Source: Xylographa opegraphella (Eukaryota). From it: a stretch of DNA of 64,000 nucleotides. Under the pieces are notes generated by a model that saw nothing but the letters and a program-made list of their open reading frames with translations, was not told where the DNA came from and ran no database searches. The translations under genes and the position numbers were made by a program. Positions 28,375 to 30,562 of this stretch are shown here, piece by piece (within the stretch, counting starts at the first letter, position 1; each line of letters starts with the position of its first letter). Where the stretch lies: positions 248,001-312,000 of the forward strand of contig JALDZX010000016.1 in the NCBI GenBank assembly GCA_022813865.1, read 5' to 3'.

Positions 28375-29306
28375 ATGGCTCCCAAGATTGCTATCATCTA
28401 TGTGAGTCGCCCCCACCAAGCTCGAGACTCGCTTCTCGAGCTCTGTCTCGGGAGTGAAAGGGTGCTCTACTAAGACGAGCCTGTGTAGTATTCGATGTAC
28501 GGCCACATCAGCCAGCTCGCCAAAGCTGAGCAGAAAGGTATCGAGGCTGCTGGGGGCAAGGCCGACCTCTATCAGTAAGCATACCGTACCCAGCATTGCT
28601 CACATTCCGTCCCGCTCCTACATTTCGAATATTCTTTTCAGAAAGCTTTGTACGTTGAAGTAGCTGACGTTTTGGTGCGTAGAGTGGAGGAGACTCTGCC
28701 AGCGGAAGTTCTTGCTAAGATGTACGCTCCTGGCCAAGACAAGTCTGTTCCGTTCATCACCCCAGCCAAACTCGAGGGTGCGTCTCATGCTCAATGCTCG
28801 AAAACAACTTGAAGAGGGTATTATCTGACGAGGCCATAGAATACGACGGCTTCCTCATGGGCGTCCCTACCCGGTACGGCAACTTCCCCACCCAGTTCAA
28901 GGCCTTCTGGGACCACACCGGCGCACAATGGCAGTCCGGTGCCTATCACGGCAAATACTGCGGTGTTTTCGTATCCACAGCGACTCCGGGCGGAGGACAA
29001 GAAAGTACCGTCATAGCCACGATGAGCACATTGGCCCACCACGGCATAATCTACGTGCCCGTTGGCTACAAGAACGCCCTCGCTATCCTCGGAAACTTGA
29101 CAGAAGTTCGCGGCGGCACCCCATGGGGCGCAGGAACCTTTGCTGTACGTTGTCCTGATCCTGACCATACCAGACATCATTGCTGACCGCATGTTCTTTC
29201 TTATTTCTAGGCCAGCGATGGCAGCCGTCAGCCGACAAAGATGGAGCTCGAGCTGGCCGAAGTCCAGGGCAGAACCTTCTATGAGACGGTGGCCAAGACC
29301 ACATGA
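28375..29306 (+). CDS. Flavodoxin-like NAD(P)H:quinone oxidoreductase (WrbA/Pst2/Ycp4/Alt a 7 family), about 200 aa, 5 exons
   Basis: [16 protein letters not shown] (FMN loop); V(E)[95 protein letters not shown] (29304-29306). Confidence 0.95.
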
Positions 29307-29549
29307 CTAGATGGCGGAGCAGCAGCCGGCGGTACGATCGTCCAGCCGCCGGCTCAGTCGGGACCTCCACACGGAGCGACGGCTGGAACAACGAATGGAA
29401 CGACAAACGGAACGACGGGGGTGTCATCTGGGGAGGCGAAGACTACGGCGCCGGCGACATCGTCGACGCCACAGCAGCCAGCAACTACAACGACGGAGAA
29501 GGAAAAGGATGGGCCGTGTGGTTTGCCAGCGAAGTGTTCGATTTTATAA
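29304..29549 (+). other. Predicted stop-codon readthrough extension of the flavodoxin-like gene, ending in a CaaX box
   Basis: TGA CTA G, then 80 in-frame sense codons LDGGAAAGGTIVQPPAQSGPPHGATAGTTNGTTNGTTGVSSGEAKTTAPATSSTPQQPATTTTEKEKDGPCGLPAKCSIL, then TAA at 29547-29549. Confidence 0.8.
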
Positions 29550-29872
29550 TTAGTGGATTCCCCAATACATTCGAAATGATGCGTCGTGGTGCCTTGATGG
29601 TTGCCTGCTGGACATGCTATGCTGTTCAGTCGGTCCGTGTAATTACTGTTTCGTCAAGTTCAAAGTAGCCATTTGCACTCTACAGCTTCGGCCATTGATA
29701 TATCGCTTATTCCAATATTCAGACATGGAACCGTTGGCCACGAAGATCCATTGCAGTTCCCACAATTCCATGCACTTAACGTACATCCCATATTTCCAAT
29801 CCTCCAGCTCTGCACCAACTCCCTGTCCCTTCTCCTCATCCACGCCGCATACCTCGGCAGGCGCCCCTTTCT

Positions 29873-30170
29873 TCCTCTCTCTCTCTCTCTCTCTCATCGG
29901 TGCATCAGAAAGTCGTGTTTCGATGTGCTGCCGAATCACCGGGGGATAAGGGGGACTTGGGTAAGGGGTTTATGGGAGGGAAGGGAAGGTGGGCGTGGGG
30001 GTTTGGAGGGTTTGGAGGGTGCGGGGTGGGATAGGGATAGGGATAAGGATAGGGAGAGGGAGAGGGATTGGGATTGCTGTGGTGCTGTGGTACTGTGGTA
30101 TGAGAGGGAGTGGGGTGGAGGGGTGGAGGGGTGGAGGGGTGGGAGCAGGGATTGGTTGGTGGAGTTAGTA
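29873..30170. repeat. (CT)n microsatellite followed by a G-rich low-complexity tract (gatagg and ggagggg-type repeats)
   Basis: ctctct run at about 29875-29895; dense GGG tracts at 29941-30145. Confidence 0.8.
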
Positions 30171-30562
30171 GGTAACCCGACGTACTGGGGCTTACATGTA
30201 GGTTCTACACATATCATGTACTTTAGGGTACCTCTGATATCAATTGTCCTTTTGTTCCAGTGGGTAAACCCTCCGTTAGTCCCCATGGCATAAAGTGAGT
30301 GGTTGGTACACTAGCGCGTCGCGAAAACGCGCAATATGTCTTAGCGCACTAGTGCTCCTGGCTGTCGTTTATCAAACACCAAGAAATACAAGAAATAGCT
30401 CGACGTCCTTTGGGATTTTGCTGAACGGCGGAGACACGTAGTCGCGGCTTGTATTTCGCTCGCACCGTGTATGCCTCTCGGCATCAATTGACCTCCAACA
30501 CCCAGTCCCCGTCCCTTCCCTCAGAGACGACCAGGCCCCGCCGGCCTCTCGAACCCATCCGA

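Follow-up and report, generated by a model that had tools for sequence, protein, structure and literature searches.

Probable UGA readthrough into a conserved CaaX-ending tail in a WrbA/Pst2-type quinone reductase gene of Xylographa opegraphella

We describe a gene in a 64,000-nucleotide stretch of DNA (contig JALDZX010000016.1, positions 248,001 to 312,000; the whole stretch is called the window here) from Xylographa opegraphella, a lichen-forming fungus of the Lecanoromycetes, order Baeomycetales. By its product and its domain match, the gene encodes a WrbA/Pst2-type flavodoxin-like NAD(P)H:quinone oxidoreductase, and its TGA stop codon is followed, in the same frame, by CTAG and an open tail ending in a CaaX box. 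Related loci share this stop, its context, the open frame and the terminal motif, substitutions in the tail follow a coding pattern, and contigs that look like spliced mRNAs retain the stop. It is likely that programmed readthrough of the UGA codon yields a minor, prenylated and membrane-anchored isoform of the enzyme.

In the mechanism that we propose, most ribosomes would terminate at the UGA (29304-29306) and release the soluble 202-residue enzyme, and a minority would insert an amino acid at this codon, which lies in the weak-termination context UGA-CUAG. These ribosomes would continue through 80 further codons, passing a disordered linker and reaching the end ...GPCGLPAKCSIL, of which the terminal CSIL would be a CaaX box and would be prenylated. 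Geranylgeranyltransferase I acts on CaaX boxes in which X is Leu, and farnesyltransferase on those in which X is Met, Ser, Gln or Ala. The Cys upstream of the box might provide a second membrane signal, for example by being palmitoylated. One gene would in this way supply a soluble majority form and a membrane-anchored, Ycp4-like minority form on a flexible leash of about 60 residues, a single-gene counterpart of the Pst2/Ycp4 pair of yeast. Plausibly, a few anchored subunits would tether whole tetramers.

The gene lies on the plus strand and has five exons, separated by introns of the form GTRNGY...YAG. Spliced together, the exons give a 202-residue product identical to P0003, which is deposited at NCBI as "Minor allergen Alt a 7 [Xylographa opegraphella]" and carries precomputed PF03358 and PF00258 domains. 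Exon 4 by itself matches the Pfam family FMN_red (PF03358) with E 1e-8 and 35.3 bits against a cut-off of 24. Because the product is this Alt a 7 protein and exon 4 matches FMN_red, the gene was assigned to the WrbA/Pst2 type; its product has 4149 relatives at E <= 1e-20, and the WrbA-family motifs are conserved in an alignment of 48 orthologues (alignment A1). The features of the gene and of the tail are as follows.

28375..28401, plus strand: exon 1, from the ATG; donor GTGAGT; splice product identical to P0003
28489..28574, plus strand: exon 2; flanking intron ends ...GTGTAG and GTAAGC...; splice product identical to P0003
28683..28777, plus strand: exon 3; splice product identical to P0003
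28840..29144, plus strand: exon 4, core of the FMN_red or flavodoxin-like fold (Pfam PF03358, E 1e-8); gene model verified
29211..29303, plus strand: coding part of exon 5 (exon to 29306 with the stop), C-terminal helix, ending ...FYETVAKTT; splice product identical to P0003
29304..29306, plus strand: TGA stop, the proposed readthrough site, read from the sequence; the stop type in 36 tail loci
29307..29315, plus strand: stop context CTAGATGGC, in which CTAG (29307-29310) is the UGA-CUA(G) readthrough motif described in PMC4207609
29307..29495, plus strand: low-complexity linker rich in G, A, T, P and Q, tail codons 1-63, varying in length and sequence among relatives (alignment A2, below)
29385..29417, plus strand: short tandem repeat within the linker, with a 12-nt repeat, encoding GTTNGTTNGTT
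29496..29546, plus strand: conserved tail end EKEKDGPCGLPAKCSIL, with a charged cluster, the upstream Cys (29517-29519) and the CaaX box CSIL (29535-29546)
29547..29549, plus strand: TAA, the second stop, read from the sequence, which would end the extended isoform right after the CaaX box

An initial annotation, made from the letters of the window, had described the TGA, the CTAG, exactly 80 open codons, a linker, a Cys-rich end and a TAA, and each of these was confirmed in the sequence. The extension (29307-29546) reads LDGG...EKEKDGPCGLPAKCSIL and contains no Met; it terminates in ...GPCGLPAKCSIL-TAA, so that CSIL-TAA presents a Cys fourth from the C-terminus followed by a stop, and the upstream Cys lies six residues before the Cys of the box. 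The TGA divides the domain from the tail, and the two do not share the single open reading frame (ORF) that characterizes a Ycp4-type long flavodoxin-like protein. A Pfam scan of the tail returned no domain, the top match being noise (E 0.7). In a structure model of a related long form, the C-terminal helix reaches the stop position and residues 205-250 have pLDDT values below 50; the tail is thus predicted to be disordered. A second assembly of what are probably the source reads, which does not represent independent data, has 0 differences over 28840-29650, and the TGA is therefore no assembly slip. Two other runs of the same study gave contigs, at 80% likeness, covering short pieces of the conserved exon parts and none of the tail.

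The main evidence comes from a comparison of related loci. Metagenome contigs were scanned with alignment A1, giving 598 matching stretches, 421 of them confirmed relatives; the best 80 of these 421 were retained and represent 79 loci. In each locus the end of the conserved C-terminal helix was located and the sequence was read on through the stop. This C-terminus was located in 78 of the 79 loci (L061 runs off its contig), and the collapse of eight near-duplicates left 70 distinct loci, which fall into these classes:

36 of 70 distinct loci: TGA followed by an in-frame tail of 44-99 codons ending in C-a-a-X
1 of 70 distinct loci (L065): TAA followed by an in-frame tail
14 of 70 distinct loci: TGA, without an in-frame CaaX end
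19 of 70 distinct loci: TAA or TAG, without an in-frame CaaX end

The nucleotides after the stop are conserved among the 36 loci with TGA and a tail. C occupies position +4, and T position +5, in 34 loci each; at +6 there is an A in 24 loci and a G in 10, and positions +8, +9 and +10 carry A, T and G in 31, 30 and 34 loci, respectively. The full TGA-CTAG is present in 20 of the 36, and 12 share the exact context of the window, CTAGATGGC (TGA CTA GAT GGC). Among the loci without an in-frame CaaX tail, by comparison, TGA-CTA occurs in only 2 of 33, and one of these two contigs stops 25 nt past the stop.

The end of the tail is conserved as well. In 35 of the 36 loci an upstream Cys (C[GS]...C) precedes the CaaX Cys by six residues, mostly within E-G-P-C-G-L-P-x-K-C-a-a-X. 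In an alignment of 34 sequences (A2), the stop column, the L-[DHQ]-G that follows it and the last 12 residues align throughout, with G-P-C-G-L-P-x-K-C-a-a-X invariant or nearly so, while the linkers between them are essentially unalignable between groups. All 37 tail-bearing loci counted end in C-x-x-x-stop, the a2 position is I or V in all 21 distinct boxes listed, and the X residue is L in 16 of the 37 tails, M in 9, S in 4, A in 3, Q in 2, I in 2 and V in 1. The initial annotation had proposed to examine Pezizomycotina orthologues for four features (the TGA-CTA context, a frame that stays open, C-x(5)-CaaX at its end and substitutions of the coding type), and the related loci pass this test.

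The pattern of change within the tail indicates that it evolves as coding sequence. All TGA-tail sequences were paired wherever tail identity reached 55% and nucleotide identity stayed below 98.5%; 16 pairs resulted. Nei-Gojobori dN/dS values (nonsynonymous over synonymous substitution rates) were 0.08-0.33 in 14 of them; of the remaining two, one had saturated synonymous sites and the other had only 10 differences and a dN/dS of 1.4. In six non-overlapping pairs, differences at codon positions 1, 2 and 3 numbered 46, 31 and 94 (summed by hand). Nucleotide identities of the coding sequence (its last 150 nt), the tail and the 3' untranslated region (UTR; 120 nt past the stop of the tail) were 0.83, 0.76 and 0.57 for L003-L004, and 0.90, 0.85 and 0.70 for L009-L013. 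For the pair L036-L044, all seven gaps in the tail are multiples of three, while those in the UTR are not. The median open length past the stop in tail loci was 63 codons in frame 0 versus 0 and 8.5 codons in the other frames, and frame 0 was the longest open frame in 28 of the 36 TGA-tail loci.

The same tail is also reached without readthrough. In six Sordariomycete-like loci (L007, L014, L023, L025/L027, L038 and L065), whose best named match is a Chaetomium protein (Sordariales; 63-84% identity), the tail can be reached through a terminal intron. These loci end in ...G-A-stop, and a GTGCGT donor overlaps the last codons and the stop; a branch-like site, CTAAT or CTAAC, lies 45-70 nt downstream, and an acceptor brings the CaaX tail into frame, so that the predicted introns measure 60-96 nt. 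Because the tail of L023 lies in another frame and a second stop intervenes in L025/L027, only splicing reaches the tail in these loci. In L007, L014 and L038, which have a TGA and an open frame, readthrough and splicing are both possible. Of the proposal that readthrough gives access to the tail, then, the part that concerns TGA-tail loci is supported, whereas the Sordariomycete-like relatives use a terminal intron in its place.

A third form is constitutive. The yeast-like locus L068 carries an uninterrupted tail ending in ...KKFCGICTIM, and the yeast-like proteins P0166 and P0167 have one ending in ...KFCGICTIM. Two tails behind TGA-CTAG, ...KFCGLNCIVA in L024 and ...KFCGVKCVIV in L047, bridge both forms of the motif. 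Since it is also reached by a terminal intron and by constitutive fusion, the tail, as judged from these loci, matters enough to be accessed by other routes. The comparison with Ycp4 that had been drawn in the initial annotation holds, both for L068 and for Candida albicans Ycp4, which has an extension of about 90 residues ending in CAAX (PMC4556627). L068 (long, tail-bearing) and L018 (short) are neighbours on the yeast-like contig Ga0160505_102407; the C. albicans genes PST3 and YCP4 are reported to be adjacent as well (PMC4556627). In one yeast-like cluster formed at 90%, whose members end in NKFCGICTIM, the position equivalent to the stop is W in P0141 and G in P0166 and P0167; the W of P0141 is either a stop/sense polymorphism among close relatives or a true TGG.

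Deposited proteins of named species show traces of the tail. The model of Xylographa trunciseda, a 447-residue mis-prediction with retained introns, happens to read in frame through the tail, sharing 53 of 77 residues with the tail of the window; a single 4-residue gap, in the short tandem repeat and equal to one repeat unit fewer, keeps the frame. Two models from orders of Lecanoromycetes other than that of the window, Agyrium rufum (Pertusariales; ...GPCGLPFKCVVL) and Letharia lupina (Lecanorales; ...GPCGLPFKCVIL), end in GPCGLPFKCV[VI]L, and both skip the stop together with part of the conserved helix to reach the tail. The Lasallia pustulata model P0060 (268 residues) ends in KKKKKKKFPDKCEIQ, with KKKKKKK before CEIQ, a polybasic stretch in place of the upstream Cys. 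Ras proteins have these two kinds of second signal. P0060 passes directly from the helix into the tail. The NCBI models P0002, P0042, P0070, P0127 and P0132 include the tail through retained introns or through predicted introns that skip the stop and part of the conserved helix, with junctions that differ by species. Such varying junctions suggest that gene callers followed the coding potential of the tail and produced artefacts.

A profile of the helix, stop and tail was searched against 1.84 billion representative proteins and gave 43 matches at E <= 1e-3, of which one was unrelated and about 38 had the tail end. Most were orphan ORFs of 43-120 residues from metagenome gene callers, and nine had W-L at the stop position, which would reflect TGA read under a code-4 model. 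Ten of the 43 matches were looked up, and 2 tail-bearing ones came from named genomes. A word-indexed search of 5.8 billion proteins with the Agyrium tail (P0042 residues 196-277) found only itself, the motif being too short for E-values against a set of this size. Short forms of 202-208 residues made up 115 of the 122 family proteins compared.

As the intron-using relatives illustrate, the tail of Xylographa might be coding and yet be joined to the enzyme through rare alternative splicing in which the stop is excised. We consider this improbable. Six Sordariomycete-like loci have the GTGCGT donor, a branch-like site and a frame-keeping acceptor, splicing is the sole route in L023 and L025, and the NCBI models of Letharia, Agyrium, Variospora and Coniosporium skip the stop to reach the tail. 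Those named models, however, cut at differing places, and two of them lose part of the conserved helix, as forced predictions would. Of 37 TGA-tail sequences, among them the window, only three (L007, L014 and L038) have a GTRNGY donor in the interval from -30 to +12 around the stop; the window has none there. An alternative intron over its stop was considered and set aside, since the frame-keeping GT...AG candidates have only weak donors (GTCAGC, GTCCAG and GTGGCC), and they would delete much of the conserved C-terminal helix. Splicing also leaves the conserved TGA and the C and T at +4 and +5 unexplained.

Eleven TGA-CTN contigs of 1.0-1.6 kb bear on the same point. Each contains an uninterrupted ATG frame (MAPK...) of 203-204 codons, the TGA, the tail and then 89-468 nt. 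Introns are present in related genomic loci, for example L044 and L058, and in the window, and by their absence these eleven contigs look like spliced mRNAs. As the stop is retained in them, splicing does not bypass it there; such a bypass had been listed in the initial annotation as a threat to the readthrough proposal.

It is very unlikely that the tail is an untranslated 3' UTR element or a product of translation noise, with an open frame and a CaaX-like end that serve no function at the protein level. The open frame of the window is by itself unremarkable: all three plus-strand frames are open across 29311-29549, and when the tail, which is poor in T (31 of 240 nt), was put through 5000 dinucleotide shuffles, 686 of the results lacked an in-frame stop. 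The window contains 1286 ORFs, counted from stop to stop, of 30 codons or more; 57 of them end in C-x-x-x-stop and 1 ends in C-x(5-7)-C-x-[ILVM]-x-stop. With 686 of 5000 shuffles staying open, an argument for significance from the window sequence alone was rejected; the tail is significant because it is conserved across related loci. The tail is also absent from 27 of the 70 distinct loci. Against a noncoding origin, the frame, the stop and the 12-residue motif are kept across loci with unalignable linkers, substitutions fall mostly at third codon positions with low dN/dS, gaps in the tail leave the frame intact and the UTR beyond it changes more quickly, and the same peptide end recurs where access is by an intron or by constitutive fusion.

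Slightly less credible still is adenosine-to-inosine editing of UGA to UGG, in which case the long form would come only from edited transcripts. Stop-codon editing with C-terminal extensions has been reported in Fusarium (PMC13123824 and PMC11169179), and a change of TGA to TGG would preserve the frame. The conserved CTAG past the stop is nevertheless unexplained by editing, and the mRNA-like contigs show TGA, not TGG, with which stage-specific editing would still be compatible. In addition, the edited A would come after a G, and fungal editing prefers a U before the A. A last alternative, that a normally long gene acquired the TGA through a private nonsense mutation or shows it through a sequencing error, might draw on the long tail-bearing models deposited for a few species. 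It can practically be dismissed: 36 distinct loci with a tail carry TGA at this codon, a sense codon occupies it in none of the Pezizomycotina-like loci that were fetched as DNA (a possibility that the initial annotation had raised against itself), most family proteins are short, and the second assembly of the probable source reads agrees throughout.

Readthrough of the UGA into a lipid-anchored tail remains the reading that we prefer, and several further points weigh against it, besides the unremarkable open frame of the window and the fact that intron-using relatives show splicing to be capable of this job. The mRNA-like status of the eleven contigs is deduced from the absence of introns, and readthrough, its efficiency, lipidation and localization are all deduced from sequence. 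No consistent RNA structure was found 3' of the stop (mean z -0.83 over 37 tails, 6 of them below -2, with mononucleotide shuffles); z is -1.29 in the window, and a structure that stimulates readthrough received no support. X is I or V in 3 of the 37 tails, which is atypical of CaaX enzymes. The model of X. trunciseda reads ...CGLPEKSS... and continues without a CaaX end, although a donor predicted within the Cys codon could account for this run-on. The contigs were placed only by their best named-protein match (54-85% identity). Finally, the tail is not universal. It is present, by any route, in 41 of the 70 distinct loci (the 36 TGA loci with in-frame tails, L065, L023, L025, L069 and the constitutive L068), and 27 show no tail, two more contigs being too short to tell. 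The 27 tail-less loci probably include paralogues and other lineages.

Some individual loci depart from the coupling of context and tail. L006 (stop at 685), an mRNA-like, Pleosporales-like contig, also counts against the proposal, as it is an exception to this coupling: TGA-CTAGAT is kept, and the extension has only 15 codons and no Cys. L069 (stop at 2153), a relative of the TGA-CTAG loci L020 and L072, has TAA-ATAG in place of TGA-CTAG and a second in-frame stop after 31 codons, and the same frame still ends in ...CLPKGCTIL; this looks like a tail decaying after loss of the readthrough stop, or like an undetected intron. The lichen-like loci L062, L063 (stop at 2370) and L073 (stop at 1451), which are 74-75% identical to the window protein over the best segment, have TGA-GTGCATGGC and a 21-codon extension to a TAG, and over 750 nt none of the frames contains a Cys-rich end. 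In these three the tail seems to have been lost or replaced.

Seen across all loci, a wider interpretation, to which we lean with less assurance than to the readthrough itself, is that the gene carries an ancient hidden anchor module throughout the Pezizomycotina, translated in most lineages only by conserved UGA-CUAG readthrough, which would be the first conserved case of recoding to a lipid anchor. Ascomycetes would have three interchangeable routes to the module, namely readthrough, a terminal intron that is retained or removed, and the fused duplicate Ycp4. Because these routes lead to the same module, selection might act on the ratio of anchored to soluble tetramer subunits at the plasma membrane.

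The mechanism class is known. Within the reach of our literature search, what is new is the kind of signal appended, its conservation and the existence of three interchangeable routes of access. UGA CUA(G) is described as a weak termination context that gives minor extended isoforms and dual targeting in fungi and animals (PMC4207609). There, cryptic type 1 peroxisomal targeting signals (PTS1) and enzymes such as glycolytic enzymes, MDH1 and LDHB involve the same stop and short 3' context as the window, a minor isoform that its C-terminal extension sends to a new address, and an evolutionary swap between readthrough and alternative splicing. The present case differs in that the signal is a lipidation motif after a long disordered linker, that the predicted target is a membrane surface, and that the extension, at 44-99 codons, is much longer.

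Prenylation signals have been predicted for one Drosophila readthrough extension (PMC3840789) and for the readthrough extension of Arabidopsis MT1C (bioRxiv 10.1101/2021.11.09.467898), and human readthrough extensions were screened for such signals, which were not pursued (PMC4359377). As reported there, the predictions are unvalidated, concern single species and come with no conservation analysis. The case in the window, in contrast, is conserved across Pezizomycotina classes and has a coding signature. In hepatitis delta virus, a viral case, the stop before the end of the large delta antigen is removed by RNA editing. It differs in that editing and not ribosomal readthrough is involved, and its proteins are unrelated to the enzyme of the window. 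No paper linking flavodoxin-like proteins, Ycp4, Pst2 or WrbA with readthrough was found in the open-access and bioRxiv literature, and subscription papers or supplements may hold one.

Ycp4 is a close counterpart. It belongs to the same enzyme family and combines a WrbA-like domain with a low-complexity tail of about 60-100 residues and a Cys-rich CaaX end; palmitoylation of Saccharomyces cerevisiae Ycp4 is stated in bioRxiv 10.1101/2023.04.27.538084 and in 10.64898/2026.07.20.739559. The tail of Ycp4 is, however, constitutive in a separate paralogue, whereas in the window gene a TGA stands between domain and tail and the longer isoform would arise as a minor product of recoding. Flavodoxin-like quinone reductases hold the ubiquinone of membranes in its reduced state and guard fungi from lipid peroxidation. 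The yeast proteins act at the plasma membrane and eisosomes (PMC4556627; bioRxiv 10.1101/2023.04.27.538084), and the latter paper states that the mechanism of their recruitment to membranes is unknown. If our reading is correct, a conserved CaaX tail behind a stop would offer filamentous ascomycetes a direct route to anchoring, and readthrough in fungi, a paradigm built on peroxisomal import, would extend to anchoring by lipids. It would also add an unannotated proteoform to the family of the minor allergens Alt a 7 and Cla h 7 (named as in the sources), and would explain recurrent annotation errors, that is, introns forced over the stop and dozens of orphan metagenome ORFs of 43-120 residues.

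Downstream of the gene, a run of CT dinucleotides occupies 29866-29893 of the window, about 320 nt past the second stop. It is followed, at 29900-30300, by a purine-rich low-complexity stretch with several open frames on both strands.

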